Origin: Acidobacteriota bacterium
GTDB lineage: Bacteria; Acidobacteriota; JAAYUB01
Direction: 5' to 3'
NCBI GenBank assembly: GCA_040768985.1
Contig: JAXGLX010000002.1
Coordinates: 4,485,871 to 4,549,870, forward strand
Length of the DNA: 64,000 nt
This document shows positions 1 to 35,183 of this stretch, one piece after another. The notes under the pieces are model-generated. The model ran no database searches. It was not told where the DNA came from and worked only from the letters and a program-made list of their open reading frames with translations. Numbering within the stretch: the stretch's first letter is position 1; the number at the start of each line of letters is the position of its first letter. Made by a program: the position numbers and the translations under genes.

Positions 1-2346
1 GTCGTCGGGATTGATCTCGAGCATCCCTTCCGTCAGGAGCATCCGGGATCCCTCCACCCAGACGGACAGGGGGAACCCGCGATGAGAATGCTCCACAGCG
101 GAAACCGTCAACAGGTACGTTCCCCGTTCGGCAGTCACAGCCGCTATCCCCGCCTCACCGCTTCTGCCGGTGTCCGCCATCCGGCCGTGCCACCGGAACG
201 GGGCGGGATCACGACGGGCCAGGCCGGCCTCCCGGTGATACGCGCCGATGAACCGGCCCATTTCCGCGCGGATCTCTTCCACGTTCCTGAATTCAAAGCC
301 GACGGCGCCCATCCGACGGGCAATGCGGCAGAGAATCTCCCAATCCGGCAAAGCATTGCCGGGAGGTGGGACGGCCCGCCGGACCATCTGCACCCGGCCC
401 TCACCGTTGATGAAGGTTCCGTCGGATTCGGTGGCCGCCGCCGCCGGCAGCACCAGGTCTGCGGTGCAATAGGGCTCCGGCGGGTAGATGTTCTGGAAAA
501 TCAGGAAATCGGCCGGGACTTGCGGCGCGGGGGGCAGCTCGCCCAGCAGGTACAACACCCGGCTCCGCTGTCCGGCCCAGAGCCGCCAGGCGTTCCAACT
601 CCCGTCCGCGGGCGCCAGGGGCACCCCCCAGATCTGTTCCGCGAGCCGGCGTTGCGCGTCGTCGTCCAGCGGCACGCCGCCTGGGAGAACCTCCGGGTAG
701 GCGCCGGCCATCAGCGAACCGACCAGGTTGTTTTGCGCCGGCAGGGGCATGAACCGGGCTCCGGTGGCGTCGGCCAGCTCGGTCAGGATCGCGAGGATTT
801 CCGCCGCCCCGTCGCACTGCATGAACTCGGAGCCGACCAGGATCACGGTGCGTTTGGATTCCCGCAGCAGCCGGGCGGCCTCACCGAGGTCGCTGTCCCG
901 GCCGGCGGCGCTCGCCCCGGCCGGAGCCGCAGCCGCCGGCTGGACGCGGTCCAGCAGGCTGCGGAGCAGGCCGGCTTCGCCGCCCGACGGCGGTTGCAGC
1001 CAGATCTGGGCGAGCAGGCTGTAGCTGTGGCGATGCGGATTCACGGTGATGAGGCGGATCCCCTGCTTGAGCGCCCGCCGCAGGGCCACCCCGACCACCG
1101 AGCGTCCGAAGCGGGAATCCAGACCCACGGCCAGGATGACCTCGGCCGCGGACAGGGCCGACAGCGGCACGCTCCGGCCCAGGAGGCGGAGGTAGGGGTC
1201 GAACGCCGGCCCGTAGAAGATCCGGGCCGTGGTGTCCACCTGGTGGGAGCGCATGACCACCCGGGCGAACTTCTGGGCGACGTACAGGTCCTCGGTGCAG
1301 CAGTTGGTGGATGCCAGCAGGGCGAACTCCTCCGGCGGACAGGCGGCGAGCTTCTCGGCCATCAGCGCGGTGGCCTGGTCCCAGGAGATTTCCGTGGGGA
1401 TCGAGCCGTAGCGGGCATAGGGGTTCCGGAGCCGCCGGTAGCCGCTGACCAGCTCCGTGTTGCAGAAGCGCCCCTTGACGCAGAGCTGCCCCTGGTTCAC
1501 CACGGGATCGTCGGCGGGCAGGCTGCCGATGACCCGTTCGTCCTTCACCAGCAGCCGGAGCTGACAGCCCACGCCGCAGAACGAGCAGGTGGTGGTCTCC
1601 TCCCGGTCGGGCTTGCCCTCCCAGGCCCGGGCTTTCTCGCGCAGGGCGCCGGTCGGGCACACCGCCACGCAGGCGCCGCAGAACTCGCAGCCGCCCGCCA
1701 TGTGGGTGCGGTGGAAGGCCGGCCCGATGATGGTGTTGCGCCCGCGGTTCTTGTACGCCAGCACGTTGGCGGTCCGGACCTCCTGGCACATCCGGACACA
1801 CCGCCCGCAGAGGATGCACAGGTTGTAATCGCGGTCGTAGAAGGGATCCTCCGTCTCCACCCGGAGGTTGCGGTAGTAGATCGGGTGATCGATGCGGTCG
1901 ATGCCCATGGATTCCGCCACCGCCTGCAGCTCGCACAGCGTGTCCTTGGGGCAGTACCGGCAGCCCGTGGTGACCCCGGACTTGCGGATGGTGGGCATGA
2001 ACTCCTTGCACTCGGCCTTCTCGTCGCAGACCAGGCAGCTGGAGGTGTGCTCCGTCAGGAAGAGCTGCAGGATGTCCCGGCGCATGGCCTCGATCTGCGC
2101 GGTCCGGGTGCGCACGATCATCCCCTCTTCCACCGGGGTGGTGCAGGCGGTCGGAAAGGTGCGCACCCCTTCGACCTCGACGATGCACATGCGGCATCCG
2201 CCGTGCGCCGACAGGCCGTCGAGGTAGCACAGGGTGGGTATCTCGATGCCATGGGCGCGGGCCGCCTCCAGAATCGTGGCGCCCCGGGCGGCCGTGATCG
2301 TCCGATTGTCAATGCTCAACGTGATGGGAATCTGCTCGGTGCTCAC
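1..2346 (-). CDS. NuoG-like Fe-S / molybdopterin-oxidoreductase-family subunit, partial (C-terminus beyond window start); GTG start overlapping the NuoF-like stop
   Basis: Own reverse-complement translation of frame 0 runs open from 2346 to position 1: N-terminal 2Fe-2S motif (C-x10-C-x2-C), His-ligated cluster HTSSCLVCDEKAEC, two ferredoxin-type CxxCxxCxxxCP motifs, then MopB-type TTCSFCGVGCQL...C. Not in the ORF track because it has no stop in the window. Confidence 0.75.
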   Translation of the reverse strand, partial: MSTEQIPITLSIDNRTITAARGATILEAARAHGIEIPTLCYLDGLSAHGGCRMCIVEVEGVRTFPTACTTPVEEGMIVRTRTAQIEAMRRDILQLFLTEHTSSCLVCDEKAECKEFMPTIRKSGVTTGCRYCPKDTLCELQAVAESMGIDRIDHPIYYRNLRVETEDPFYDRDYNLCILCGRCVRMCQEVRTANVLAYKNRGRNTIIGPAFHRTHMAGGCEFCGACVAVCPTGALREKARAWEGKPDREETTTCSFCGVGCQLRLLVKDERVIGSLPADDPVVNQGQLCVKGRFCNTELVSGYRRLRNPYARYGSIPTEISWDQATALMAEKLAACPPEEFALLASTNCCTEDLYVAQKFARVVMRSHQVDTTARIFYGPAFDPYLRLLGRSVPLSALSAAEVILAVGLDSRFGRSVVGVALRRALKQGIRLITVNPHRHSYSLLAQIWLQPPSGGEAGLLRSLLDRVQPAAAAPAGASAAGRDSDLGEAARLLRESKRTVILVGSEFMQCDGAAEILAILTELADATGARFMPLPAQNNLVGSLMAGAYPEVLPGGVPLDDDAQRRLAEQIWGVPLAPADGSWNAWRLWAGQRSRVLYLLGELPPAPQVPADFLIFQNIYPPEPYCTADLVLPAAAATESDGTFINGEGRVQMVRRAVPPPGNALPDWEILCRIARRMGAVGFEFRNVEEIRAEMGRFIGAYHREAGLARRDPAPFRWHGRMADTGRSGEAGIAAVTAERGTYLLTVSAVEHSHRGFPLSVWVEGSRMLLTEGMLEINPDD

Positions 2347-4232
2347 TGTTCACTCCGCCTGGACTCGAAAATGACGGCGTTGCCCGCCAATTGGTCGTAT
2401 CGGCACACTTCGTAGCAGGCCTTGCATTTGATGCAAAGGGCCAGGTCGATCCGGTGCGCTTCGGACCGCGCCCCGGAGATGGCGTGGGTCGGGCACACCT
2501 CGACGCACCGCTGGCACCCGTTGCAGCGCGCAGGATCAATGCGGTACTCCACCAGTTCCTTGCAGACGGCGGCCGCACAGTGACGCTCTTTGGCGTGCTG
2601 GAGATACTCGGTGCGGAAGTGCCGCAAGGTGGTCAGGACCGGATTGGGCGCGGTCTGGCCCAGTCCGCACAGCGAAGCCCGTTTCACCGTCTCGGCCAGG
2701 TGCTGCAGTTTGGCCAGGTCCTCCGGTTGGCCGCGTCCGGCCACCAGGTCCTCCAGCAGACGGACCATGTGCCAGGTGCCCACCCGGCAGGGGGAGCATT
2801 TGCCGCACGATTCCGCCTGGGTGAAACGAAGGAAGTACAGGGCGAGGTCCACCGCGCAGGTGTCCTCGTCGACCACGATCATGCCGCCTGAGCCCATGAT
2901 GGACCCGGCTTCGGCCATGGCCTCGTAGGCCACCGGCAGGTCGAGAAACTCCTCCGACAGGCAGCCGCCTGAAGGCCCGCCGGTCTGGACCGCCTTGAAC
3001 CGCTTCCAGGATCCGCCCCCGATGTCGAAGACAATCTGGCGCAGCCGGATGCCCAGCGGCACCTCGATCAGGCCCGGCCGCCGGACCTTGCCTACCAGGG
3101 AAAAGGTCTTGGTGCCATAATTGCCTTCCACTCCGAACTGACGGTACCACGCCGCGCCGTTGCGAAGAATATGGGGCAGGGTGCCCAATGTTTCCACGTT
3201 GTTGATGATGGTGGGGTGGCCGTTGAGGCCGGCGATGGCCGGGAAGGGCGGGCGCGAGCGCGGCATGCCCCGGCGGCCTTCGCACGAGGCGATGAGCGCG
3301 GTCTCTTCACCGCACACGAATGCGCCGCCGCCCTCCTTGAGGGTGATGCCGAAGCTGAAATCTGTTCCCAGCACCCGCTCACCCAGCAATCCGTGAGTGG
3401 TCATCTGGGCGATGGCCTGGCGTAACCGGGCGATGGCCAGGTGGTAATCCGAGTTGATGTAGATGTAGCCGTGGCCGGCGCCGATGGCGTACGCCGCGAT
3501 GAGCAGGCCTTCCAGTACGGCATGGGGATCGCCTTCGATGAGCGCCCGGTTCATGAACGCACCCGGATCACCCTCGGAACAGTTGCAGATCACGTACTTG
3601 GTGGTTCCGGCGGCGCCGCGGCAGATCTGCCATTTCCGCCAGGTGGGGAAGCCGGCCCCGCCCCGGCCGCGCAGCCCCGCCTCCTTGACCATACCGATGA
3701 CATCCTCTGGCGTCATCCCGAGCGCCTCATTCAGTCCCGCATAACCGTCATTGGCCAGATAGTGCTCGATGTCCTCGGGGTCGATGAAGCCGCAGTTACG
3801 GAGCACCAGCCGGACCTGGTGACGCATCATCGGCGTGTCAAAAAAGCGCGGCAGCCCGGCAGTGAGCGGATCGCCGTTGGAGCCGAAATGAGCAAAGGCC
3901 AGGTCCGCTGACGGATCGCCGTGCAACAGCAACCGCTCCAGAATCCGTTTCACCCGGGACGGATCCACGTTGGCATACGTGATGCGGGGATGGTTCGGCA
4001 GCCGCACGTCCACGAGCGGCTCCAGGTAGCAGGGGCCGATGCAGCCCACGGGGACCACCCGAGCCTCCACCTGGAGCTCCAGGAGTGTCTGTCGGATGGC
4101 GTGCAGCACATTTCCGGCACCGGCGGCAAGTCCACAGGTGGCGGCACCGACGTAGATGACCGGGACCGGGCTCTCCTCAAGACGGGCCCATTGTTGCCTG
4201 GCGGCAGATTGGATGGTCGAGAAGTTACTCAC
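2343..4232 (-). CDS. NuoF-like NAD(H)-binding flavoprotein subunit (51-kDa-type; HndC/HoxF-like) with C-terminal 2x[4Fe-4S] ferredoxin domain
   Basis: Track ORF; GLRGRGGAGFP NADH/FMN motif, ESCGKCSPCR cluster motif, C-terminal CNGCQRCVEVCP and CIKCKACYEVC motifs. Confidence 0.9.
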   Translation of the reverse strand: MSNFSTIQSAARQQWARLEESPVPVIYVGAATCGLAAGAGNVLHAIRQTLLELQVEARVVPVGCIGPCYLEPLVDVRLPNHPRITYANVDPSRVKRILERLLLHGDPSADLAFAHFGSNGDPLTAGLPRFFDTPMMRHQVRLVLRNCGFIDPEDIEHYLANDGYAGLNEALGMTPEDVIGMVKEAGLRGRGGAGFPTWRKWQICRGAAGTTKYVICNCSEGDPGAFMNRALIEGDPHAVLEGLLIAAYAIGAGHGYIYINSDYHLAIARLRQAIAQMTTHGLLGERVLGTDFSFGITLKEGGGAFVCGEETALIASCEGRRGMPRSRPPFPAIAGLNGHPTIINNVETLGTLPHILRNGAAWYRQFGVEGNYGTKTFSLVGKVRRPGLIEVPLGIRLRQIVFDIGGGSWKRFKAVQTGGPSGGCLSEEFLDLPVAYEAMAEAGSIMGSGGMIVVDEDTCAVDLALYFLRFTQAESCGKCSPCRVGTWHMVRLLEDLVAGRGQPEDLAKLQHLAETVKRASLCGLGQTAPNPVLTTLRHFRTEYLQHAKERHCAAAVCKELVEYRIDPARCNGCQRCVEVCPTHAISGARSEAHRIDLALCIKCKACYEVCRYDQLAGNAVIFESRRSEQ

Positions 4233-4713
4233 GGTTTTGCAAGATCTCCTTCAGCTGGGTGACCATTGTCCGGGCGTGGATCTTCTCGTTGACTTGGACC
4301 ACCGGGGCCAGCGCACAGCACCCCAGGCAGTTGACTCGCTGAAAATCGAATGCTTTGTCTTTGGTGGACTGTCCCACGGTGATGCCGAGTTGCCAACCGA
4401 GGGTGTCGCTCAGAAATCCGCCACCGTGGACGTGGCAGGCGGTACCCATGCACACCTTGATGGACTTCCGGCCAGGCTCGTCGAAGCGGAACTTTGAAAA
4501 AAATGAGGCCACCCCGAAGATCTGGTTTTCGGACAGGCGCAGAAACTGCGAGATCCGCCGCACCGATTCCTCGGAAATGTAGCCGAACGTTTCCTGCACC
4601 CGGACCAGAATGGAAATCAGCTCCCCCTCCTGGCCCTTGAACTGCTGGAAGAGGTCATGGTAATCCCGCGGGTCGGTGCCGGCGCCGGCCTCCGGGGTGT
4701 CGAGTGGATTCAT
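4225..4713 (-). CDS. NuoE-like 2Fe-2S thioredoxin-fold subunit (24-kDa-type; HndA/HoxE-like)
   Basis: Track ORF 162 aa; Cys motifs CMGTACHV and CLGCCALAP; 8-nt overlap with the NuoF-like start suggests translational coupling. Confidence 0.85.
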   Translation of the reverse strand: MNPLDTPEAGAGTDPRDYHDLFQQFKGQEGELISILVRVQETFGYISEESVRRISQFLRLSENQIFGVASFFSKFRFDEPGRKSIKVCMGTACHVHGGGFLSDTLGWQLGITVGQSTKDKAFDFQRVNCLGCCALAPVVQVNEKIHARTMVTQLKEILQNRE

Positions 4714-5988
4714 TCAGTCATCCTCGCTTTGTTGGACTCGGTTCAGGTGGATACAGTCGGTGAGCTTCACTTCGCCCCGCACAAAATCCTCCGCAAAGGC
4801 CATGCAGGTGGGCGATCCGCAACATCCGCAATCGATTTGTTTCAGTTTTTGATAGACGCGCTCCCGCTCTTTCATCCGCTTGATGGACGTCTCCAGGTCC
4901 GTGTCGAAGTAGCGGATCGGACGCGGCATGATCGGATACTCGATGGTGAAATATCCTGCCTGCATCTTCTGCTCGATGTCGTGGGTGTCGATCTCGATCC
5001 GCTCCTGATACTTTTCACCCTGTCGCAGGGCATTGACTCGGGCGATGTACGGGTTTTCCACGTTGAAGGTGCCGCCGACGCAGCCCAGCATGTGGGCCGA
5101 CGCCTCGATGAAGGTGACATTGCGCAAGCGGGAGTTCTCGATGTCGTCCAAAATTTGCATGACGTGGTCCAGACCCGCAATCACCAGCCAGTTCTCCCGC
5201 TCCGCCGCCCGGGTCAAGCTGCCCGACGTGACCCACTCCGAGTTGAACGAGAAATTCTCCGGCACCTGCTTCACGTCGAATTCCTTGTGGATGGCCATCA
5301 CGTGAGGCATGATGATGGAGTAGATCCCGCGCACCGACACCACGCCGTCGAACCAGGATTTATTCTTTTCAGCCGGCTGCTGAACGGAGGCGATCTTCGC
5401 CGGACAGGTGGCCACATAAAACACGCCGATCTCCTCGGCGGTGAGGCCCAACTGTTCGGGCAGGTCCTTTTTGATTTCCCGGGCCGTGATTTCACGCGGC
5501 ACTTCCATGGGGACGATCAGCTCCACCAGGTCGGGAAATTTCACCTGGATGAGCCGAACCACGCATGGGCAATAGGACGCGATCAGTGGCAGGCGGCCGC
5601 GGTATTCCTTGAGGTACAGTTCCAGCGCCTTGGCCAGGGCCACCGTGGAGGTATGCACGTCGATCACGCTGTCGAAACCGATTTCCTTTAGCGCCAGGTG
5701 AATCACGTAGGGGTGGATGTGGGCGTCGAACTGGGCGTACAAGACGGGGGACGGCACGATGACCTTGTGCCGGAAGTGGGAGAGTCCATTGACCATGTCA
5801 CTGTCGACAACAATGGCGTTTTCCGGACAGATGCCGATGCAGTTGCCGCAGTCGACGCAGAATTCGTCCGAGATGACCGCTTTGCCGTTGCGCACCCGGA
5901 TGGCCTGAGTGGGGCAGATGCGCATGCAGGCCATGTGTCCCCGGCATTTCGCCGGGAGGACTCTGTGGGCATGGAAATAGCGGGTCAT
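4714..5988 (-). CDS. Sensory-type (HydS-like) [FeFe]-hydrogenase-like protein: N-terminal 2x[4Fe-4S] ferredoxin, divergent H-cluster domain, C-terminal Cx2Cx4Cx16C motif
   Basis: Track ORF 424 aa; CxxCxxCxxxCP-type motifs at N-terminus; H-cluster-like motifs SYCPCV, ATCPAK, SAHMLGCVGG; C-terminal DCGCCGSPTCMAFAEDFVRGEVKLTDC. Confidence 0.7.
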   Translation of the reverse strand: MTRYFHAHRVLPAKCRGHMACMRICPTQAIRVRNGKAVISDEFCVDCGNCIGICPENAIVVDSDMVNGLSHFRHKVIVPSPVLYAQFDAHIHPYVIHLALKEIGFDSVIDVHTSTVALAKALELYLKEYRGRLPLIASYCPCVVRLIQVKFPDLVELIVPMEVPREITAREIKKDLPEQLGLTAEEIGVFYVATCPAKIASVQQPAEKNKSWFDGVVSVRGIYSIIMPHVMAIHKEFDVKQVPENFSFNSEWVTSGSLTRAAERENWLVIAGLDHVMQILDDIENSRLRNVTFIEASAHMLGCVGGTFNVENPYIARVNALRQGEKYQERIEIDTHDIEQKMQAGYFTIEYPIMPRPIRYFDTDLETSIKRMKERERVYQKLKQIDCGCCGSPTCMAFAEDFVRGEVKLTDCIHLNRVQQSEDD

Positions 5989-6007
5989 GGCAGTGGCTCT
6001 CTGCGCG

Positions 6008-6820
6008 TCAGGCTGTCGGTGGGCGAATGGAGAATTTCATCCGCAACCGGGTTCCCCGGCCGACCTCACTTTGGAGGTCCAACTCATCCGAATTTCTTTT
6101 GATGTTCGGCAAACCCATGCCCGAGCCGAAACCCATGGCCCGTTGTTCTTCGGTGGCCGTGGTGTACCCCTCCTGCATCGCCTCGGTCACGTCCGGAATG
6201 CCCTTGCCCTCGTCGTCGAGGATCACCTCGATGGCGTTGGGGGTGACCGCCAGGCTCACCTGGGCCCGCTTGGCGTGCATGATCACATTCATCTCACCCT
6301 CGTAGGTGGAGATGGCCACGCGCCGGACGATCGTGGGATCGACCCCGATCTTCTTCAGGATGGATTTCACTTCGGTGGATACCAGACCGGCCCGCGAGAA
6401 ATCGCTCCCTTCGATCAGGAACTGGTTATTCAACAGGATGGACTCGGACGGTGGCGGGATTTCCATGGGCAAACCCGCCAGGCCGGACTCATGGGTCAGG
6501 GTGTAAATCCGGACGCAGCTTTCGTACATGTCCAACTGGGTGGACATCAACACGATGTTGTGTTCCCGGGCGAATCGCTCGGCGCCGTCCTTGGTCTTTT
6601 TGCCACGGATCAGAACAACCCCGCGGAATTCGGCCATGTGAGCGGAGATGACCGACTGCTGGGAGGCGAGACCGGTCAACAGGATGGAGTCCGGTTTTCC
6701 GAACGCGAGCACGTCGCTCATCAGGTCCGAGGCGTAGATTTCCGTGATGTCGGTGGAGAGGAGATCCTCGCGGGCCAGCACGGCGGCTTCCAGCGCGAGT
6801 CTGATGGCATCAATCTTCAT
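6008..6820 (-). CDS. DRTGG-domain protein fused to HATPase_c-type anti-sigma regulatory factor-like Ser/Thr kinase domain
   Basis: Track ORF 270 aa; C-terminal ATPase G-box-like GFGSGMGLPNIKR; N-terminal half resembles DRTGG domain. Confidence 0.65.
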   Translation of the reverse strand: MKIDAIRLALEAAVLAREDLLSTDITEIYASDLMSDVLAFGKPDSILLTGLASQQSVISAHMAEFRGVVLIRGKKTKDGAERFAREHNIVLMSTQLDMYESCVRIYTLTHESGLAGLPMEIPPPSESILLNNQFLIEGSDFSRAGLVSTEVKSILKKIGVDPTIVRRVAISTYEGEMNVIMHAKRAQVSLAVTPNAIEVILDDEGKGIPDVTEAMQEGYTTATEEQRAMGFGSGMGLPNIKRNSDELDLQSEVGRGTRLRMKFSIRPPTA

Positions 6821-6904
6821 TCACACGCTCAGGGGACGGCGGTTCATTCAGCGTCTGGGCCGGGCCGATCCGCGAACGAGCAGGTTGTCGAACAGATACT
6901 GACG

Positions 6905-7240
6905 TTACTTGGCGACGAGTCCGAGCGAGTATAGTTTCCCGACCAGGTCGAAAGTCATCGTGTCAGTAGCGAGGAGGGCAATGTTATGACGGTTGGCCAG
7001 TTCGATGGTTTCCGGTGGGACACTCTTGCCGTTGGGGATGATGACGGCCGCAACATCCACCAGGTTGGCTGCCGGGACGATGCTCTTGTGGGTTTGCACG
7101 GTCACCCAGAGATTGCCGGATTTTGCGCCCGCCATGACATCACTCAGCATGTCGGAGATGAACACGCCGCTGATCTCCCGGTGCTCAAACTGGCTCAACG
7201 GCTTCAGCCCGAGGATGTCGATCACTTCTTTTGTCGTCAT
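6905..7240 (-). CDS. DRTGG-domain protein (small regulatory partner)
   Basis: Track ORF 111 aa; similar in sequence to the N-terminal half of the 6008-6820 product (ISDMLSDVMAG vs ASDLMSDVLAFG). Confidence 0.6.
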   Translation of the reverse strand: MTTKEVIDILGLKPLSQFEHREISGVFISDMLSDVMAGAKSGNLWVTVQTHKSIVPAANLVDVAAVIIPNGKSVPPETIELANRHNIALLATDTMTFDLVGKLYSLGLVAK

Positions 7241-7283
7241 AGTTCAAGCTCCGTGCAAAGATGGATGTTGGTCCCGGTTGCGA

Positions 7284-7826
7284 TTAAAACAACGGCTTTC
7301 GTTCCACCAGCGGCTTCTGCGAGAGCATGCCGACATCATGGATGAACTCACCCCGGCACAGGGCGATCTTCGGGATCCGGTCGAAGGAAATGAATCGGAC
7401 GGTGGACCGCGAGGTGTCGCGGCGCTGGTTGAAATACGCGCCGAGTATGTCCAGCCGCCTCTTGCTGATCGGGGTCCGCAGCCCGTCCGGCAGGTTGGAA
7501 AAGGCGACCAGGATCCAGGTCCGCTTTTTCTCCGCCCGCTTGCGGATTTTCTCCACAGCGCAATCGGGCAGGCAGGAGGTGCAGTACATCAGTCCCAGCA
7601 GGTCTTGGAAACTTTCACGCCGCTGGCAGAGCGCGCACTCGAGGTTGAAGCGGATGGTCTGGGCGTTCTCGACGATGCTCCAGGTGCAGTCTCCTTCCTT
7701 GTACTGATCCCACGTGTCCTGGGTGGAAAAGTAGGTCCGGAGTTCCTGGCAATGGGAGCAACGCTCGAAGACCGAGAAACCGAACTGGACGTCCACCATT
7801 TTCCACGCATGCTGGCAATGTGACAT
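7284..7826 (-). CDS. Cys-rich zinc-ribbon-like hypothetical protein (start moved to internal Met MSHCQ)
   Basis: Track ORF 7284-7877; CxxC pairs (CSHCQ, CALCQ, CTSC) plus further Cys/His; first gene of the minus-strand cluster. Confidence 0.45.
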   Translation of the reverse strand: MSHCQHAWKMVDVQFGFSVFERCSHCQELRTYFSTQDTWDQYKEGDCTWSIVENAQTIRFNLECALCQRRESFQDLLGLMYCTSCLPDCAVEKIRKRAEKKRTWILVAFSNLPDGLRTPISKRRLDILGAYFNQRRDTSRSTVRFISFDRIPKIALCRGEFIHDVGMLSQKPLVERKPLF

Positions 7827-8289
7827 CAGTGCACACCTGATAACAAAATAACAAGCCAGGCCTGCCGCCTGATCCAATGTGCGTACAAGAATGACCGGAA
7901 CAGTCTGAGTCAGGTTAATTCAGCAATACCGCGATGTCAAGGGATTGTTGCCGGAATCCAGGTTCGTCGGCACGCCGGGCGATGAAACAGAACGGTGCCT
8001 CCGACCCGAATCGCCGCGCTCGGATGGCCGGAATCAGCGGAGTTGCGGCGTTAATGAACGAGTCACAGCCGGAGCATGGTCGGTTGATGATCAATCCCAT
8101 GCTGAAATCCTGTTCGACCCGCCGCGTGCCGTGGGTCGCCGGGAGGGACGCCTGAAGGTTGTGCGTGGCCCAGGTGCGCACGGTACGGGGGGGGCGACGG
8201 GCCCATCCATCACCACGCCGACTGTTTGGTTCCGGCTCCGCCGGGTTGGGATTACGAATCAGGATGACGCGCTCGAACCATCAACGACC

Positions 8290-8650
8290 AACTATCCGCG
8301 ATACTGTGAACCTGTGAATCCGTGAACATTCCAACGTTCGAACATTCAAACGGCTCCATTACGAACACGATCACGATTACGGATTACGAGCTGGAACCAT
8401 CAACTCTCAATGAGCGGAAACGAGCCTCGAGCCTCGAGTCTCTAGCCTCGATTACGATCACGATTACGAATTACGATTACGAATCTCGATTACGATTACG
8501 AATCACGAGCACGAGCCATCAACTCTCAATGAGCGGAAACGAGCCTCTAGCCTCGAGCCTCTAGCCTCGATTACGATCACGATTACGAATCTCGATTACG
8601 ATTACGAATCACGAGCACGAGCCATCAACGATCAACCATCAACGATCAAC
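8290..8650. repeat. Minisatellite array: two tandem ~105-120-bp units (approx 8397-8515 and 8516-8620) built from GATTACGA / CACGAGCACGAG / CCATCAAC / GAGCCTCTAGCCTCGAG submotifs, plus flanking partial units
   Basis: Direct reading: unit ccatcaactctcaatgagcggaaacgagcctc[g/t]agcctcgag...cgattacgatcacgattacgaat...cacgagcacgag occurs twice in tandem; second unit lacks one 13-nt tacgattacgaat subunit. Confidence 0.8.
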
Positions 8651-8684
8651 AGTTGGCGAGCTTTCCAACCCCGGGCGCAGGCAC

Positions 8685-19592: not shown

Positions 19593-19664
19593 ATCCAACA
19601 TTCCCACAATCAGGCGGGACGCAGTTTGCGGGTGATGTTTTCCGGCCGGAAGGGTAGGTGAAAC

Positions 19665-22600
19665 ATGTTCAGATCGTCCCTGACACGGCACGGCAGCTTC
19701 TTCACCGGTCAAGAGCGGACGGATCGCCGGCAGCGTCCGGCCGGTCGCGTCGGACGCTGCGGGTTCGCGGTCGGGATCGTATTCATCGCCCTGGCCCGGC
19801 TGGGCGCCCAGGACCTGGAGATCGCCGGCGACCCATCGATCAACCGGTGCGAGGCCAAGGTCTACACCCTCACCCTGCAAAACGATTCCGGAAATCCGTT
19901 GACCCGCCTGGTGGCGAGTGCCGATCTCTCGCTGTTGACGGGATTTTCGTACGTGCCCGGCAGCACCTCGATTTGGGTCAACGCCGAGCCGGTGTTCTGC
20001 ACCGCCGATCCTGCGGCCGGCGGCGGCTCCTTGATCTGGGACCTGGATGCGCTTTGCGGCCCGACGGTGGGCCTGGACGATGGCGACACGCTGAGTGTCA
20101 CCTTTCAGCTTCAAACGGCGTGCGCCGCCGTCTCCGGTTCCCTGGGCAGCCGGTTTAACTATGACATTGCGGGGACGCCGTCCGAGATCTTAGCGGCCCG
20201 CGCCATCCAGGTGTTGCCGGGCCGGCTGAGCATCCGGAAAACCCCCAGCGTCATCTCCCAGGAGGTGGGTCAAAACGTCACCTGGACCATCGCCGTGGAG
20301 AACACCGGCCTGGGAACGGTCCGGAACGTGGTGGTGACCGACGGGTTGGGGGCGGGCCTCGAGTACGTGGCGTCGTCGCCGGCCGGCCTCAACGCCGGGC
20401 CGACGACCCGCTGGGATGCGGCCCAGGTGCCGGGCCTGGCGCTGATGGTTCCCGGCGACATCATCACCCTCGACGTCACGGTGAAAGTCATCGCCTGCAC
20501 CGGCCTGGACAATTCCGCCGACGCGCGGTGGGGCTGCAACCCGGCGACCGACTGTTTCGACACCGCCGTCGACGGCGGGACGGCCACCGCGGTGGTGCAG
20601 CGGATCCCCCGTTCTCCCAGCCTGAGCTTGACGCCCCCCGACATCGGTTTCTCATACTGCGAGGACAGCGGCCCGCAGGCCTTGAGTGTGGAGAATATCG
20701 GTGACGGGACGGCCCGAGCGGTCGAGCTGTGGATCGACTTCAGCCCGCTGGCCGTCGCCGCGTCGTCGGTCCCCTACAACGCCGCCGGTTACTTTGAGCT
20801 GCCCGACATCGCCGCTGGCGGCCGTGTCGACGTGACGTTCACCCTGGCGTACGCCGGCTGGTGCGGCGGAGCCGACCTGGCGGGAACGCTGATCTGGCAA
20901 CCGCGCTACGCCGACGACTGCGGCGGCGCCTATTTCGCCCCGGTGGAATACAGCGAGATCCTCCCGGCAACCGGGACGCCCGGCCTTTCGGTCGACGTCA
21001 CCGGCGCCCCCGACGTCATCTCCATCGGGGACGCGGTCACGTACGCCGTCACATCCAACTATTCGGGGACCTTGAACTGCGGCGCGGGGAGCGTCGGGGC
21101 CGTCACCGTCACCGACACGGTCCCCGCGGGCTTCACCGTCGTGGACGCCGGCGGCGGGACCTGGGTTCCCGGGGCCGGCGGCACCGGCGGCGCGGTGACC
21201 TGGGCCTATCTCCCTCCCGCCACCCTCGCCACGACGCTGACCCTCCAAGCGCCCCTCCGGGACGAGTGCGAAACCTGGTGCTTCACCACGTTCGCCAACT
21301 CCGTCGAAGCCTCCGTCACCGACTGCTGCGGCTGTGAGCACACGGCGGCGGCGTCGCAGTCTTCGGCGATCGTGTGCGAGGAACTGGTCATGGTCACCCG
21401 GACCGCCACGCCGGCCACCGCGGAGCGCTGCTCGAATATCCTGTACACCAACATGTATGCATTCGACGGCTCGGCCGGCGCCCTCCTCAACGAGTTGGTG
21501 TTCACCGAACGGGCCGACCATCAGCAGCAGTACGTCCCCGGATCGCTGACCGTCACTTTCGACGGCGGTGACGTCACCGGATGCGTGCTCGTCACCGACA
21601 CGACCCCGGGCGGGACGCTGACCCTCGACTTCTCCGGTTGCGCCGCCGCCGCGGTGGGCGCGAAAGCGCTGGTCATCACCTACCAGCTGACCATCACCGA
21701 GGCCACCGCCGCCGCCTGCGGGGGAACGGAATTCTACGCCTGGTCCGCCCTGCAGCAGGGGAGCACCGGATCCCAGTGCCTTGTGGACGGGACCATCTAC
21801 GAGGCCGTCGCCGTCGCCGTCGAGGCGCCGGCCATGTCTCTCCGGTTGTCGGGCCTGTCGACGGTCGTGGACCGGTGCCGGACGGAGACGGTGACCCTCA
21901 CCCTGGCCCAAACGTCCATGGCCGCCAATCCCCGGGACGTCCGGCTCGTGCTGTCCGGCCTGAACTATTACGTGGTCAATCCAAGCGCAGCCATTTGCGC
22001 CGGCGACGTTTCGCCCATCTCCTGCACCCCCGCCCTGGTGGGGGACGACTTCGTCTGGTATTTCGGCGACGGATTCACCGGTGCCGGGCAGAGTTGCGTC
22101 CTCCAGTTCCAGGTGCAGAAGCGCTGTTCCGGCGGGGGGAGCCTGGAGGCCACGGCCTTCTTCGACGACCGCTGCCACGACGACGGCGTTTATGACGATA
22201 CCTGCTCCGTGAGTGGCGGCCTGACCCCCGCCGCCATCCGCGGAGGCGACCTGCTGGTGGAAGTGAGTCCGGAGGTCTACCAGGCCGCCTCCTCTTCGGT
22301 GGAGTGGAAGGTTTTCGTCACCAACCGGGGCGCGGGCACCGCCGCCAACGTGTGGGTGGATCACTTCCTGGGCGCCGGGCTCGATTTCAGTTCCGCTGTC
22401 GTCGACGACATGACCGGCGTCACCGTCACCGCCGACATGGACCACACCGGGGGCGCCGTCAACGGCGCCACCGTCGCCATCGACGCCCTGGCGCCCGGCG
22501 AGCGGCGGGAAATTTCCTTCCACGCGGTCCTGATCGACACCTTTAACCTGACCCTCGACGTGGCCGCCGCCTGGGGCTGCGTCGGCGTCGACTGCCAGTC

Positions 22601-25600
22601 GGCCGTGCGGGACAGTTCCACGGTGGAGACCCTCACGCCCATGCTGGTGGACACCGCCGTCGTGACCACTCCCGTGGATGCCTGCGGCGGCTCCACGGGC
22701 ACGCTCACGCTCCGCAACGCCGGACAGACCGCCTGCTACAACGGCCAGGTCACGGAGACGTTGCCGGCCGGCCTGCGGTACGTCTCCGGCACGACCCGCT
22801 GGCGGGTGAACGGCGGAGCATGGAACGGGCCCGACGCCGCCTACGACCCCAATCCCACCGTCTCTCCCCTGCGCTGGACCGCCACCGGGATCCCGGGATT
22901 GGCGGTTCTGAACCCGGGGGACACCCTGGATGTGGACTACGACTTGTCCGCGGACTGTCCCTTCACCGGCGGGCCGGTCACGGTCACCGTGTCGTACGAG
23001 GACCCCGGCGGGCAGGTCATCAACAATCCGGCGTCCACCTTCTCCGTGGCGTTCCGGGCGCCCGACCTCCGGGTGACGAAAACCCGGGCCGACCAACCGG
23101 TAAGCTGCGGGGAACTCATCGAGTGGACCATCGCGGTGGAGAACCAGAGCGGCTACACGCTTCCCATCGTCTGGGTCGAGGACACCCTGGATGCCGCCTT
23201 TACCTTCAACTCCTCGGTGGGAGACCCGCCCTACACGGCCGACGACGGCACCTTTGACGGCGTGAATCGGGTCAGCTGGGAACTGAGCTATCTTGGTCCC
23301 GGAGAAACCGCGATTCTGACCTTGCGGGCCTCATTGGATTCATCACCCTGCAGCCCGGACCTGGACAACACGGTCCGGGCCTGGTGGGGTTGCGGAACCG
23401 CCGACGGCTCGTCTGCAACCCAGCCAGGCGTGGATCCTCCCGATAACGGCCTTTGTCTGAACCCGACGCCGGTGAGCTACGTACGCACCGAGACCCGGCA
23501 GCCGAGCTTGACCGATTTCGCCGTCGGCCTCTCCCCCGCATCCATCGATGCCTGCAACGGCGGCACCGAAGTGACCTTCGCGTGCGCCAACACCGGCACC
23601 ACGGATGCTTTCCTCCTCGATGTCGAGATCTCCCTGCCCGCCGGGCTGACGTACAATCCCGGGACCGCCCGACTGTATGTCGGAGCCGACGGCACGGGCG
23701 CCACCACACCCATCGCCGATCCCGCCGTTTCGGGGAATCGGCTGATCTTTTTCGACACGGCCGACAAGGTCAACAACCTGGTCGATGTGCTGCAGGCCGC
23801 CGGTGGCAGCGACACGCTGGTGCTGAAATTCGAATTGCGATCGGATTGCTTTTTCGCGGCCGACCTGGGATACGCCGTGCGCTTCTACGACTGCTGCGGC
23901 GACACCCAGTACCAGCTCAGCGGCAGCCAGACAGTGCCGGCGCTCAACCCCGAGCTGACCGTCACCCAGGCGCCGGCATCCGCGCAGATCGCCTGCGGGG
24001 GACAGCAGGCCTGGACCATCACCGTCACCAACACGGGGGCGGGTAACGCCCAGGTGGTCCGAATCGAGGACACGCCCGGCGCCTGGATTACCGTGGACCC
24101 GGGCGCCTCCACCGCCGGGCTGACGGACCTGGGCTCCGGAAAGTGGGGCTGGGAGATCAACGATCTCGCCTCCGGCGGCGCGCAGGTCTTCACCCTGGCG
24201 GGAACCCTGAACCCGGCCGGGAACGGCTGCGATGCGTCCCGGCGCGAAAACAACGTCCGGGCTGTCTGGGGGTGTGGCACCGCCGGCGATGCCACCGACG
24301 GCGATCCCCTCACCCAAAGTTACGACTGCACCTCGGCGGTCTGGGCGACCGCCCCGACCGCCATTCTCCGGCTGCCCAACCTGGCCGTTGGCGCCGTCGC
24401 GCCTGCGGCCGCCTGCGCCGCCGACGGATCCTTCACCGGCAGCATCGCCGTCTCGATCGTCAACGCCGGCGACGGGAGCACCGGCGGCGGCTTCCTGATC
24501 CAGGCCGCCGACGGGCAGGGCTGGACCGGCACCTTCGCTTGCGCCAACATCCTCGCCGCCGGAGAAACTCTGAACCTCGACATCCCGGGCTCCTCCTGGT
24601 CGCCGGCGTGGGTGCCCGCCTGCACCCCCTGCGCCGCGGCCTCGCCCTACAGCTTCACCGTCGTGCTCGACCCGACGGGCGCCGTCTGCGAGTGCGACGA
24701 GAGCGACAATGCCCTGGCCGGGATCCTCTTCGACGTGCACCGCCCCGAACTGGCGGTGACGGACATCGATTTTGCGCTCGTCGCCTGTTCCGGCGACCAG
24801 GTCGCCGGCGCCATCCGCGTCCGCGTGGACAACACCGGGTGCGCAGACGCGGCCGGGGTCGTGGTTCGACTGACAGCCGACTGCGGGCTCACCTTCGGCG
24901 ACCAGATCACCAATGTGCCGGCGGGATCCCACACCCTGGCCGAGTTCCCGATCGTTGACGGTGCTTGGAACGACTGCGCCGACGAAACCTGCGCCTTCAC
25001 GGTCGCGGTGGATCCGGCGGGGCTGATCTGCGAGTGCGTGAGCGGCGGCGACACCCTCGGACCCGTGACCCACACGCTGTCCCTCCCGGACCTTGAGGTG
25101 ACCGACATCGAGCTGGGCGCCCTGAGTTGCGACAGCGGCGTCGTGTCCGGTTCGGCGTCCGTCACCGTCCGCAACGCGGGGAGCGGCGCGGCGGGCGCCT
25201 TCAGCGTCAGCCTGTCCACCCCGGCCGGCCTGGCGTTCACCGACCAGCCCGTCGCCGCGCTGGCTGCGGGCGAGAGCATCACCCTCGTATTCCCCGCTGC
25301 GGGGAGCCTGCCCGACTGCTGCCTCTGCGCGGCCGATTTCACCGCCGCGGCCGACGCCGCCCAGGCTGTCTGCGAGTGCCGGGGGGACAACAACGTCCGC
25401 ACCGTCCGGCCCGCGGCTGCGGACAAGATCTACTGGACGGACGAGAGTGCCGGCGCCATCCAGCGCGCCGAGGCCGACGGCGCCTCCGTGGAAGCGGTGC
25501 TCGCCGGGCTGGCCGGACCCCGCGCCGTGACCCTCGACGGGACCGGCGGCAAGATGTACTGGCTCGAGCCGGCCGGCGGCGTTCTCCGCCGGTCGAACCT

Positions 25601-28600
25601 GGACGGCACCGATCCCGAAACCCTGCTGGACAGCCTGTCGGCGCCGGTGGCCCTGGCTCTCGATCCGGCCGCCGGTCTGCTCTACTGGACCGACGCCGCG
25701 GGGGTGCACCGGGCTGGCCTCGACGGCGCCGATCCGGAGAATCTCATCCCCTCCGTGACGGATGCCGCCGGCATCGCCGTCGACTCCATCACCGGACGGC
25801 TCTATTTCGCCCAACCCGACGGCCGGATCCGCGGGGCGAACCTTGACGGCAACGACCTTCAGGAGGTGATCGCGGGCCTGGGCAGTCCCTTCGGCCTGGC
25901 GCTGGACATCCGGAACGGCATGCTCATATTCTCCGATCCGCTGACCGGCCTGATCCAGCGGATCTATCCGGACGGCACCGGCCTGACAACCGTGCTCGGC
26001 GGCCTGGAGTCCGCGGTGGGGTGCCTGGCCCTGAACGCGGAGGCCGAAACGGTCTACTACGAGACCCGGGGCGCCGCCATCCGCCGGGTGGGCCTGGACG
26101 GCGCGGGGGACGCGGCGATCGTCGACGGCCTGGACCAGTCGGGCGGTGTGGCCGTCCTGAAACTCAACACGGCGCCTACGGCCACGGAGATGAACCAGAC
26201 CCGCGACTATCTCCAGGGCGCCGCGACCGTGCCGCTCAACGATATCGTCGTGACCGATCCGGACTTCTGCGATACGGTCATGGCCGTCCTGATCCTGGCC
26301 GACCCGTCGTTGGGCGGTCTGTCCGACAGCAGCGGGCACGGCGAAACCTACGACGCCGCGGCGGGCCGGTGGACGGTCACCGGATCCGTGGCGGACGTCA
26401 ACGCCGCCCTGGCCGACGTCGCCTTCCTTCCGGTCCCCGACAATCCCGATGCCGAAACCGTCACCGTCCGGATCCGGGACGCTTCGGGGGCAGGCCCCGC
26501 CGATGGCGCCGTGGTCCTGGGCGTGATTCCCTATCCGGTCATTTCCGGGAGCGTCCGGCTCAACGGCGCCGGTGTCGCCGGCGTGGCGATGAACGGCCTG
26601 CCGGGCGGCATCGCCACTGACGCCTCCGGCGGCTACAGCGCCGTGTTGCCCCACGACTGGTCCGGGACAGTCACCCCGGACCTCGCCGGTTACCATTTCA
26701 CTCCCTCCAGCCGGACCTACGCCAACGTCGCCGTGGACCAGCCGGACCAGGACTATACCGCCACGGCCGCCACCGCCGCCGTCCTGGTTTCGGAACCGAA
26801 TCCATCGGTCTTCGGCGATCCGGTGACCCTGACGGTGACGGTCTCTTCCGCCGCCGGCCCGCCGCCCGGCACGGTGCGTTTTCTCGACGGCGCCGTCGAG
26901 ATCGGATCGGGGACACTGTCGGCCGGAGCCGCCGCTTTCTCCACCAGTCTGCTCTCCGGCGGGCTCCACGTCCTCACCGCCGCATACGACGGCAGTCCCG
27001 GCTACGAGACATCGGTTTCACCGCCCGTGAACCACCCGGTCAACCCGGCCGCCACGGCGACGAACCTCTCGTCGGCGCCCAATCCCTCGGTCTTCGGCGA
27101 CGCCGTGACCCTGACGGCCGTGGTCAGCTCCGGAGCGGGCACGCCGTCCGGGACAGTCACCTTCTTCGAGGGAGCCACGGTTCTCGGGAGCCAGGCGCTG
27201 GCGGGCGGTGTCGCCACTGTGGTTATTCCGTCGCCCCCTGGCGGCATTCACGGCTACAGCGCCGCCTATTCCGGCAACGCCGACCACCAGCCGTCCGCTT
27301 CGGCCGTCCTGAACCACTTGGTTCAACCCGCCCCCACCGCCACAACCCTGTCGTCGGCGCCCAATCCCTCGGTCTTCGGCGTCGCCGTGACCCTGACGGC
27401 GGTGGTGGTCTCTCCCGTCCCGGCGCCCGCCGGGAGTGTGGCCTTCCGCGACGGCGTCGTGGTGCTGGGAACGGTCGTCCTCTCCGGCGGCGGGACCGCG
27501 GTGTTCACCACGTCCGCGCTCACCGGGGGGACGCATTCGTTGACGGCCGAGTATCTCGGGACCGCGAACCACGCGGCCTCCACCTCCCCGGCCGTCCTGC
27601 AAACGGTTCGCCGGGCCGCGACCGCCACGACGGTCTCGTCGTCCGTCAACCCGTCCCGGTACGGACAGCCGGTGACGTTCACCGCCGCGGTGGCCGGCCC
27701 CGGGAGTCCGCCCACCGGCACCGTCGTTTTCCGGGCGGACGGCGCCGATCTCGGTCCGGCGGTGCCCCTGTCGGGCGGCATGGCCGTCCTGACCACTTCC
27801 GACCTGGCGGTGGGCGGCCACACGATCACCGCGCACTACCGGCCCATGGCCGACCCGAATCACCTGCCCAGCGAGGAGTCGCTGACCGGCGGGCAGAACG
27901 TCGTCAAGGCAGACACGACGACCGCCCTGACGACCAGCCGATCGTCGAGATATGGAGAAGCGGTCAACCTCACGGCCGTCGTGGCGGTGATCCCGCCCGG
28001 GAGCGGAATGCCCTCGGGAACGGTGACGTTTTTTGACGGAGTGACTACCCTGGGAACAGGTACACTGTCGGGCGGAACGGCGACCTTCACCACGACGGCC
28101 CTGGCGGTGGGGCCGCACCAGCTGGCGGCCCGGTTCGAGGGGAACGCCTCGCTGAATCCCAGCGTATCGCCGTCCACATTCCACCGGGTGTATATGGCCC
28201 TAACCGGCACGGTGCTGGCGGCCGCGCCGAATCCCTCGCACCGGGGCCAGACTGTGACGTTCACGGCGACGGTGACGGCGACACCTCCGGGAGCGGGAAC
28301 GCCCACCGGGACGGTGACGTTCCGGGACGACGGGGTCGCTCTCGGCAGTGCGCCGCTGTCGAACGGTACGGCGACGTGGGCTACCGCGCAGTTGACGATG
28401 GGCACGCATCCTATCACCGCGGGATATTCCGGTGACGAGAATTTTCGGTCGAGCGATTCGGAGATCCTGTCCCAGGCCGTGGAACGGGCGGAGACGGCCA
28501 CCACGCTCCATGTGTCACCGAGCCCCGTCTGTCCGGGCGGGACGGTGACCTTGACGGCCATGGTGTCCGTCGTGCCCGCTGGTGAAGGGACACCGACGGG

Positions 28601-35174: not shown

Positions 35175-35183
35175 GGAACGGCC

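Follow-up and report, generated by a model that had tools for sequence, protein, structure and literature searches.

Among the [FeFe] hydrogenases, the M2e or group D proteins lack a PAS domain and are regarded as "putative sensory" enzymes, with TamHydS of Thermoanaerobacter mathranii as the sole characterized member, which binds [2Fe]adt, has a low turnover, and is a proposed sensor (PMC8163306, PMC13104023). Its gene stands next to one for a kinase-like ATPase and precedes those of a Bfu-type hydrogenase; the group C HydS enzymes, also proposed H2 sensors, have kinases, phosphatases, and bifurcating hydrogenases encoded nearby (PMC8163306, PMC13104023). A gene arrangement in which a "sensory" [FeFe] hydrogenase without PAS has a kinase-like neighbour and precedes a NuoEFG-like complex is already known. 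In the classification of the electron-bifurcating Bfu family, the A subunit of Type-3 members needs additional subunits for a third substrate (PMC9304861, PMC11829005). Here, we analyse a stretch of 64,000 nucleotides (nt) of contig JAXGLX010000002.1 from an Acidobacteriota bacterium (the window), in which a 424-aa [FeFe]-hydrogenase-like protein is encoded between three regulator-like genes and a NuoEFG-like set. Judged by homology and by related contigs, these seven genes are the front part of a nine-gene cassette that runs past the window edge, and in which a BfuCBA core with an A subunit lacking an H-cluster domain is followed by canonical NfnAB.

Gene order and extent of the cassette

Gene calls were taken from the open reading frame (ORF) listing and the translations. 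In transcription order, the seven genes are:

7284–7826, minus strand: Cys/His-rich protein of 180 aa, the first cassette gene; no Pfam or NCBIfam match
6905–7240, minus strand: stand-alone DRTGG protein of 111 aa (Pfam DRTGG, 24.0 bits, E 3.7e-5)
6008–6820, minus strand: protein of 270 aa with a DRTGG domain and a predicted SpoIIAB-type GHKL ATPase/Ser-kinase domain (HATPase_c_2, TIGR01925)
4714–5988, minus strand: [FeFe]-hydrogenase-like protein of 424 aa (Fe_hyd_lg_C, two Fer4 motifs, PF04060)
4225–4713, minus strand: predicted BfuC, a NuoE/HydC-like [2Fe-2S] thioredoxin-like subunit of 162 aa (PF01257 2Fe-2S_thioredx, 134.9 bits)
2343–4232, minus strand: predicted BfuB, a NuoF/HydB-like flavin mononucleotide (FMN)/NAD(H) subunit of 629 aa (Pfam, solved B subunits)
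1–2346, minus strand: predicted BfuA, a NuoG-like subunit cut by the left edge of the window (Pfam, translation)

These co-directional genes are tightly packed within window positions 1–7826, separated by gaps of 43, 84, 19, and 0 nt and then overlapping by 8 and 4 nt (GTGA). The initial annotation, made from the sequence alone, had proposed seven minus-strand genes with short gaps or overlaps, and both this layout and its domain calls hold, as Pfam and NCBIfam recover DRTGG, HATPase, Fe_hyd_lg_C, and NuoE/F/G-type domains. The region from 4 to 10 kb has a lower GC content (0.59–0.61) than the window as a whole (~0.68). An Rfam search of window positions 1–10000 gave no match, and a promoter and terminator scan found nothing exceeding the shuffled expectation; a TTGACA-17 nt-TAACCT sequence at 7940–7912, spotted by eye, failed the criteria of the promoter scan.

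A scan of species-representative genomes yielded 80 loci (numbered with L), whose six-frame ORFs were searched with the seven window proteins by phmmer. The nearest of these are Acidobacteriota metagenome-assembled genomes at 95–96% identity, and the order Zn-ribbon, DRTGG, DRTGG-HATPase, hydrogenase-like, NuoE, NuoF, NuoG is the same in essentially all loci down to ~57% identity, and also in some at 45–48%. Recurring in most of the 80 loci, the arrangement is far beyond chance, and the neighbourhood is strongly conserved across genomes, a lack of which would have spoken against the initial annotation. According to the record titles, the hosts are Acidobacteriota (including Terriglobia and Holophagae), Zixibacteria, Ignavibacteria, Calditrichota, KSB1, Gemmatimonadota, Krumholzibacteriota, Bacteroidota, Aminicenantes, and a Chromatiales bin, a range of more than 10 phyla that are anaerobic.

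Two further genes follow BfuA. In the close relative L001, the start of a 284-aa gene overlaps the end of an 842-aa NuoG-like gene, and a 465-aa gene comes next. The 284-aa protein is NfnA, matching the small subunit of NfnSL over its full length (5jca_S, 251 bits; 4ylf_A, 226 bits), and the 465-aa protein is NfnB, with an equally full-length match to the large subunit (4ylf_B, 585 bits; 5jca_L, 522 bits). Wherever the contig reaches that far, in ~49 loci, both genes stand directly after NuoG (phmmer). As their positions lie outside the window, they were read from other contigs, among which those encoding an identical NuoF protein are 99.99% (L084), 99.7% (L081), and 98.75% (L082) identical to the window in the aligned part. 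Contigs L082 and L081 contain the full BfuA gene (842 aa) followed by NfnA and NfnB, and the species of the window thus has both genes. The initial annotation had called the catalytic partner of the NuoEFG-like set unclear; this is largely resolved by the continuation of the operon into canonical NfnAB. In three reference loci, cross-locus conservation starts exactly at the Zn-ribbon gene and stops at NfnB, and these boundaries mark a self-contained cassette of nine genes. A SudBA/NfnAB pair is also present in C. abyssi (Cabys_0800–0801).

Proteins of the cassette and their relatives

The 424-aa protein matches Fe_hyd_lg_C (PF02906) with 83.6 bits over profile positions 4–244 of 245, and this domain is flanked by a two-cluster ferredoxin domain (two Fer4 motifs) and a PF04060 FeS domain (44.7 bits). 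Such a full-length match rules out an ordinary ferredoxin or a protein without a hydrogenase domain. BLASTP aligns the protein colinearly with TamHydS (sequence from the supplement of PMC6984386) over residues 3–415 with 34% identity (E 2e-79), and no PAS domain was found by Pfam or NCBIfam in this protein or in the other cassette genes of the window. The C-terminus carries a C387-x2-C390-x4-C395-x16-C412 motif (Cx2Cx4Cx16C), every Cys of which is invariant in the alignment. The colinearity with TamHydS, the four-Cys motif, and the missing PAS match justify the earlier label of a "sensory-type", PAS-less hydrogenase-like protein with a putative sensing role.

We placed the H-cluster motifs by alignment to solved [FeFe] hydrogenases and 16 homologues, using CpI numbering for the canonical positions. 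The canonical TSCCP reads ASYCP, with Cys299 replaced by Tyr139 and the ligand Cys300 retained as C140; MPCxxK reads ATCPAK, with Cys355 as C195 and Lys358 as K198, preceded by Ala193 and Thr194 at CpI positions 353 and 354; and ExMxCxxGC reads EASAHMLGC, with Met497 replaced by Ser297, the ligand Cys499 by His299, and the bridging Cys503 retained as C303. Aligned in this way, the H-cluster site is not canonical: three of the four H-cluster Cys (C300, C355, C499, and C503) are kept, and His stands at position 499. The features of group D, that is, the absence of Cys299 and the replacement of Met353 and Met497, are all present (Tyr139, Ala193, Ser297), although the family consensus at position 497 is Leu, as in TamHydS, and not the Ser of the window protein. 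Since His may still ligate the cubane, His299 lowers strict group D membership rather than function.

Residues Pro79-Ser80, Lys198, and Cys303, the counterparts of which contact or bridge the 2Fe subcluster in group A enzymes, are invariant in the family alignment, as are the Asp found just before the first and the last Cys of the C-terminal motif and the Glu-Asp pair highlighted for group D. The first ferredoxin motif is C15-x2-H18-x2-C21-x3-C25-P (CRGHMACMRICP), and the second (C44/C47/C50/C54) is canonical; the second Cys of F-cluster 1 is a His in 172 of 200 relatives and an Arg in 20 of 200. In the 171 family members with both motifs readable, CpI positions 299 and 499 covary, with the combinations His/Cys (n = 100), Tyr-or-Phe/His (n = 57), and other (n = 14). 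The cassette flavour has Tyr or Phe at position 299, which means that the usual proton relay is missing, and a sister flavour pairs Cys499 with a His at position 299. This covariation points to selection acting on the H-cluster pocket. In a JACS study of 2019, an engineered CrHydA1 C362H variant reportedly kept an active H-cluster, with a bias to H2 oxidation. As C362 is presumably the equivalent of CpI Cys499, a His at this position would be compatible with an H-cluster. We regard the 424-aa protein as a divergent group D [FeFe] hydrogenase that probably still carries an H-cluster with a His-ligated cubane.

The family of this protein is large, with 1751 word-index matches at E<1e-5, and an exhaustive HMMER search found 4411 representatives at E<1e-3, 275 of them at E<1e-30. 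The cassette subfamily corresponds to a single 50%-identity representative (59% identity) with the next relatives at ≤41%, and thus forms a tight clade. No HydF/HydG-like ORFs were seen within ~10 kb on either side in the 80 loci by a crude, weak motif scan. An AlphaFold2 model of the protein from a 17-row alignment had a pLDDT (predicted local distance difference test) of 56.8 and was unusable.

The three genes upstream encode a set of candidate regulators. The 180-aa protein, its length counted from the ATG common to the homologues, likely has two zinc-ribbon-like sites. Its family comprises only 219 proteins, annotated as hypothetical throughout, in which the Cys/His sites and a FNQRRDTSRS motif are conserved, and a confident predicted model found no structural relative. 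The near-invariant motif (residues 133–141) consists of basic residues followed by Thr and Ser, and might conceivably be a phospho-acceptor site for the adjoining SpoIIAB-type kinase. The 24.0 bits of the 111-aa DRTGG protein are slightly below the Pfam gathering score, but it is paralogous to the N-terminal domain of the 270-aa protein (26% identity, E 6e-11), and its SDxxSDV motif is kept in 61 loci. In the 270-aa protein, the N-terminal DRTGG match is weak, and the remainder matches HATPase_c_2 (37 bits) and HATPase_c (31.9 bits) in Pfam as well as the anti-sigma F factor family TIGR01925 (spIIAB, 54.9 bits) in NCBIfam. SpoIIAB (1til) is its nearest solved protein (E 1.7e-7), and the ATP-binding motifs E..N, DxGxGIPD, and GFGSGMGLPN are kept in 66 loci, with the N, G1, and G2 boxes intact. 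Thus, the ATPase and DRTGG genes do lie immediately upstream of the hydrogenase-like gene, as first annotated, but the ATPase is of the SpoIIAB/anti-sigma Ser-kinase class, without a phospho-acceptor domain, rather than of the histidine-kinase type. None of the nine conserved cassette genes encodes a STAS antagonist, a PP2C phosphatase, or a sigma factor, and the DRTGG proteins may stand in for these missing partner-switching components.

Fusions in relatives indicate that DRTGG, HATPase, and the hydrogenase-like protein are one unit. Among distant representatives analysed with Pfam, DRTGG is fused N-terminally to the hydrogenase-like domain in two (P0251 and P0311) and C-terminally, after the Cx2Cx4Cx16C cluster, in three (P0254, P0260, and P0319), the latter occupying the spot held by PAS in group C enzymes; in P0314, HATPase_c is fused to the N-terminus. 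HATPase fusions of "group C" hydrogenases have been noticed in Elusimicrobia (10.1101/765248) and Hydrogenedentota (PMC11406978). For the "group C1" proteins of the latter, the authors found no P1-P3 signatures and left the function open (PMC11406978). The unit also occurs outside the cassette: a Zixibacteria locus (L057) has the four-gene upstream module on its own, without Bfu, and in an Anaerolineae locus (L066) the module is convergent to a fused NfnABC-type Bfu whose 1232-aa NfnA has a GltD-like insert. In relatives at 43–46% identity, the trio of DRTGG, HATPase, and hydrogenase-like genes closes an operon of HdrA-like, MvhD, and GltD-like flavoprotein genes. One such trio, with an Arg in place of the F-cluster Cys, follows HdrA-like, MvhD (FlpD), GltD-like, and other Pyr_redox_2 genes in L074 (1604–11293; also in L068–L080). 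A second hydrogenase-like paralogue with the canonical F-cluster Cys was observed in L067 (5745–8162) and L070 (11775–14211), and the HATPase and DRTGG genes belonging to this paralogue interrupt the cassette between NuoE and NuoF. The constant theme across these loci is an association with NAD(P)H-linked, electron-bifurcating flavin/Fe-S complexes, a true hydrogenase not always being included.

The NuoEFG-like module proposed initially was right in its domains, and the three proteins can be assigned more precisely, by their alignments, to BfuC, BfuB, and BfuA of the bifurcating Bfu family. The BfuC start codon directly abuts the stop codon of the 424-aa gene. BfuB, with the FMN/NAD site and the B1 cluster of the family, has Complex1_51K, NADH_4Fe-4S, and two C-terminal Fer4 domains in Pfam, and its N-terminal thioredoxin-like and C-terminal 2x[4Fe-4S] domains belong to an end-to-end alignment (residues 22–615) with solved B subunits of the Bfu family at 589–685 bits. 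These include NfnABC (9bov_B, 685 bits; 9n5u_B, 683 bits), NiFe-HydABCSL (7t2r_B, 669 bits), Stn (8oh5_B, 662 bits), and HydB of HydABC (589–620 bits), whereas NuoF of complex I matches only in the core (288–362 bits). NuoE, NuoF, and NuoG are the top named NCBIfam families, apart from a slightly higher score of formate dehydrogenase gamma for the NuoE-like protein, but all three equivalog cut-offs are missed (NuoF, 447.8 vs. 558.65; NuoG, 282.7 vs. 470; NuoE, 120 vs. 141).

BfuA has the Pfam domains Fer2_4, NADH-G_4Fe-4S_3, Fer4, Molybdop_Fe4S4, and Molybdopterin, and by its motifs would bind a [2Fe-2S] cluster (C40/C51/C54/C68), a His-ligated [4Fe-4S] cluster (H100/C104/C107/C113), and two [4Fe-4S] clusters (CILCGRCVRMC, CEFCGACVAVCP), besides the Molybdop_Fe4S4 site (CSFCGVGC). 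The A1-A5 motifs are kept, and all of the 47 homologues have the A2 His motif. Between the His-ligated and the 2x[4Fe-4S] motifs lies an extra CxxCx5C (GCRYCPKDTLC; window 1960–1932, residues 129–138), which is likewise conserved in all 47 cassette homologues and absent from FdsA; it may represent an additional cluster or a docking site. Pfam detects no Fe_hyd_lg_C/H-cluster domain in BfuA, whose C-terminal part is molybdopterin-like, with Protein Data Bank matches including FdsA and the non-catalytic subunit A of NiFe-HydABCSL (7t2r_A). The FdsA active site ARVCH aligns with a degenerate ARIFY, in which the catalytic Cys-His is replaced by Phe-Tyr; of 42 cassette homologues, 41 have AR-x-[F/Y]-Y at this site and the remaining one has S-Y, and the score against the Fdh-alpha model is 221 bits (cut-off 666, NCBIfam). 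A role as formate dehydrogenase (FdsABG or Fdh-Bfu) is ruled out by the missing catalytic Cys/Sec-His, and a group A3 bifurcating HydABC does not fit an A subunit without an H-cluster domain. In the Bfu classification, the cassette BfuA is Type-3-like, needing extra subunits for its third substrate, for which NADPH via NfnAB and H2 via the group D-like protein are the candidates.

Sensing and catalytic readings

On the evidence of the genes observed, their homologies and domain fusions, the conserved synteny, and the states of the motifs, we favour the reading that an H2- or redox-sensing, SpoIIAB-type kinase module controls a Bfu/Nfn pyridine-nucleotide–ferredoxin system, and would give it a probability of roughly 50%. 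The cassette would then consist of two modules, a signal-transduction unit of the four upstream genes and the regulated machinery of BfuC, BfuB, BfuA, NfnA, and NfnB. The 424-aa protein would serve as the input, its redox or conformational state being shifted by H2 or, through its Fe-S clusters, by the redox poise of the ferredoxin pool, and the DRTGG domain, replacing the PAS of group C sensors, would relay this change to the SpoIIAB-type ATPase/Ser-kinase. If active, the kinase would phosphorylate or sequester a partner, for which the free DRTGG protein and the Zn-ribbon protein with its RRDTSRS motif are candidates. The Bfu-type core, with an A subunit lacking a catalytic site, and canonical NfnAB, perhaps joined in one complex, would interconvert NADH, NADPH, and reduced ferredoxin.

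The sensor part of this reading draws on the full-length homology to TamHydS with its low turnover and bound [2Fe]adt, on the invariant residues around the 2Fe site (Cys303, Lys198, and Pro79-Ser80), on the loss of the proton relay with Tyr or Phe at position 299, on the DRTGG and HATPase fusions, and on the ATP-binding motifs conserved in 66 loci. It also draws on the separability of the four-gene module, which stands alone in L057 and, in L066, beside a Bfu already having its own third substrate. The Bfu/Nfn part follows from the end-to-end matches of BfuB and NfnAB to solved enzymes and from the conserved nine-gene order with its sharp boundaries. Several points weigh against it. A pure sensor leaves BfuCBA without an obvious third substrate except NfnAB, which is already a complete enzyme with NADH and ferredoxin as shared substrates. 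The 0-nt gap couples the translation of bfuC to that of the hydrogenase-like gene, which is as conserved as the enzyme subunits and which L007 retains next to BfuCBA-NfnAB although it lacks the first three genes. In the cassette, we detected neither a DNA-binding nor another output domain, the fold of the Zn-ribbon-like protein being unrecognised, and the C-terminal cluster of TamHydS did not respond to H2 (PMC13104023).

The main rival is a catalytic role, which we consider possible but rather doubtful. Here, a new Type-3 Bfu hydrogenase ("FeFe(D)-Bfu") would have the 424-aa protein as its H2-converting subunit, docked on the catalytically empty BfuA in the manner of the small and large [NiFe] subunits of NiFe-HydABCSL, and would couple H2 to NAD+ and ferredoxin. 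From NADH and reduced ferredoxin, NfnAB would make NADPH, so that the net result would be an H2:NADP+ system or the reverse of it, with the kinase and DRTGG proteins gating activity. A BfuA that has neither an H-cluster domain nor a live formate dehydrogenase site, and yet retains the A1-A5 motifs and the extra CxxCx5C and resembles 7t2r_A, speaks for this, as does the self-contained cassette, in which the hydrogenase-like protein is the only third-substrate candidate besides a canonical and self-sufficient NfnAB. The abutting 424-aa and bfuC genes, the retention of the 424-aa homologue with the enzymes in L007, and the distant loci in which the protein ends an HdrA/MvhD/GltD-like operon without another hydrogenase point the same way, and the CrHydA1 C362H variant, said to remain active with a bias to H2 oxidation, would fit as well. 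These arguments are opposed by the replacement of the proton-relay Cys299 by Tyr or Phe and by the company of a kinase-type ATPase and DRTGG, fused in relatives, in which the family travels and which is typical of signalling. The module also occurs without Bfu (L057) or on the opposite strand beside a Type-1 NfnABC (L066), and we know of no purified HydABC from an organism with a group D neighbour that contained the group D protein. The catalytic rates of TamHydS are low (PMC8163306). In its fullest form, a catalytically competent, naturally His-ligated [FeFe] hydrogenase on an empty BfuA, gated by DRTGG/SpoIIAB, forming an H2:NADP+ system with NfnAB, and spread horizontally through more than 10 anaerobic phyla, this proposal is slightly less probable still.

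Alternatively, the 2Fe subcluster might have been lost and the protein, as a Nar1-like multi-[4Fe-4S] or [3Fe-4S] protein unrelated to H2, might sense the redox state of ferredoxin or NAD(P)H, or relay electrons, for Bfu/Nfn. The exchange of one cubane Cys for His and the failure of the canonical P1-P3 signatures, as remarked for the Hydrogenedentota "group C1" proteins (PMC11406978), are in line with such a loss, as are the His or Arg at the second Cys of F-cluster 1, resembling a 3Fe-type motif, the lack of HydF/HydG-like ORFs nearby in that weak motif test, and the associated enzymes, which do not use H2. We nevertheless think it improbable, because there is no variation at Cys303, Lys198, and Pro79-Ser80, whose importance is confined to the 2Fe site, an H-cluster is assembled by the homologue TamHydS, and the 299/499 covariation indicates selection on the H-cluster pocket. 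Furthermore, the cassette-bearing phyla include H2 producers, with true [FeFe] hydrogenases in cultured members (PMC5317091, PMC3534657). Much the least credible reading is a detached NADH-dehydrogenase (N) module of complex I with unrelated genes upstream. It could appeal to the Nuo names of the best-scoring NCBIfam families. Some cassette-bearing phyla also have complex I loci without nuoEFG. However, it is effectively refuted by the scores below cut-off for all three proteins, by the Bfu-specific N- and C-terminal domains of BfuB and its approximately twofold higher scores to bifurcating B subunits than to NuoF, and by the missing membrane-arm neighbours (no nuoA-N genes are adjacent); the linkage to the four upstream genes and NfnAB is moreover conserved across phyla.

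The cassette provides a concrete and widespread natural context for the question of the physiological role of the group D "sensory" hydrogenases. Its constant partner is not a hydrogenase but a Bfu core that has no hydrogenase domain itself, together with NfnAB, and since the fusions tie the hydrogenase-like protein physically to DRTGG and a SpoIIAB-type ATPase, they define a testable signalling chain. If the favoured sensor reading is true, many uncultured anaerobes would link the control of their NADPH supply to H2 or redox sensing; if the protein is catalytic, a new type of bifurcating hydrogenase would exist, and at least part of the "sensory" group D would not be merely sensory. In either case, the covarying pairs His299/Cys499 and Tyr/Phe299/His499 (CpI numbering) are ready-made experiments on H-cluster tuning.

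Genomic setting and comparison with known systems

The surroundings suggest that the cassette was horizontally transferred or recombined and locally rearranged. In a comparison with L001 (window 1–17534), identity amounts to 98.9% in the flanking genes but to only 92.1% in the cassette. A 262-aa gene (8685–9473) without a Pfam match is 85.8% identical to its L001 homologue, which stands on the opposite side of the cassette. The gene is bracketed by 119-nt tandem repeats at 8249–8650 and 9613–9821 with short units such as GTAATCG and TCAACCA, copies of which also occur beside the homologue in L001. In addition, the GC content at third codon positions of the upstream cassette genes (0.76–0.82) is below that of the neighbours (~0.90–0.95). 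Together with the tight multi-phylum clade, the drop in identity, the moved 262-aa gene, the repeats, and this codon bias point to horizontal transfer and local rearrangement.

Further along the window, genes at 9869–15225 encode an ATP-dependent phosphoenolpyruvate carboxykinase, a methylmalonyl-CoA/propionyl-CoA-type carboxyltransferase, a cupin, and an oxaloacetate-decarboxylase-alpha/transcarboxylase-5S-like protein, and fit a propionate-type fermentative metabolism. A giant ORF of 3559 aa on the plus strand (19662–30338), with seven Big_3_5 Ig-like stretches and DUF11 and CARDB domains, is probably a surface or adhesin-type protein. On the minus strand (33108–36695), a sucrose-phosphate phosphatase fused to an invertase/GH100-like domain lies beside a sucrose-phosphate-synthase-like GT4 glycosyltransferase, and these genes may form a compatible-solute (sucrose) cycle.

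Several aspects of the cassette are undescribed in the literature that we searched: the nine-gene arrangement with an H-cluster-less BfuA and canonical NfnAB, DRTGG as the equivalent of PAS as a partner, the cassette-specific Zn-ribbon protein, and the natural His-for-Cys states with their covariation. The combination is not among the Bfu types listed in PMC9304861, and a literature search on DRTGG with hydrogenases found nothing relevant.

The closest described protein, TamHydS, shares with the 424-aa protein the hydrogenase domain, the Cx2Cx4Cx16C cluster, the lack of PAS and of Cys299, a residue other than Met at position 497, and the Asp by the C-terminal cluster Cys with the Glu-Asp pair, as well as a kinase-like ATPase neighbour upstream of a Bfu-type complex. 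It differs in keeping all four cubane Cys (SSACP, SPCAAK, EGLACIGGC), where the window protein has a His at 499, and in its canonical first ferredoxin motif, CRGCTNCIKRCP, the second Cys of which is a His in the window protein. Positions 299, 353, and 497 are Ala, Ser, and Leu in TamHydS and Tyr, Ala, and Ser in the window protein, the Ala at 353 also departing from the Ser/Thr of the M2e description. In contrast to the TamHydS context, the cassette BfuA has no H-cluster, NfnAB follows, and a second DRTGG gene and the Zn-ribbon gene are added; unlike the TamHydS host, the cassette hosts are Gram-negative and belong to largely uncultured phyla. Group C HydS enzymes, such as TmHydS of Thermotoga maritima, have the same C-terminal four-Cys cluster and also a disrupted proton pathway, but they possess a PAS domain, which is absent from the cassette and whose spot is taken by DRTGG in relatives, and the kinase partner of the cassette is SpoIIAB-like. 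SpoIIAB/RsbW Ser-kinases have the closest ATPase domain, with the N, G1, and G2 boxes equally intact, but the cassette ATPase is fused to DRTGG and is accompanied by no STAS, PP2C, or sigma factor gene in the cassette. The CrHydA1 variant C362H, a group A enzyme mutated in the laboratory, also has a His at what is presumably the Cys499 position, whereas the His of the cassette protein is natural, conserved, and covarying with position 299.

Among the enzymes, NiFe-HydABCSL of Acetomicrobium mobile, a Type 3 Bfu, aligns with the cassette proteins end to end in BfuB and BfuC and likewise has a BfuA without a catalytic site; its [NiFe] subunits are missing from the cassette, where the group D-like protein is encoded directly upstream instead. 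The link to an NfnL-type NADPH module is shared with Nfn-Bfu (NfnABC/Stn), in which an NfnL-like domain is inserted in the NuoG/Fdh-like BfuA (PMC11829005), whereas the cassette has a separate and complete NfnA and NfnB pair. These last two cassette genes match both subunits of NfnAB/NfnSL from Thermotoga maritima (4YLF) and Pyrococcus furiosus (5JCA) over their full length, but the pair invariably lies behind a Bfu core, with overlapping start and stop codons.

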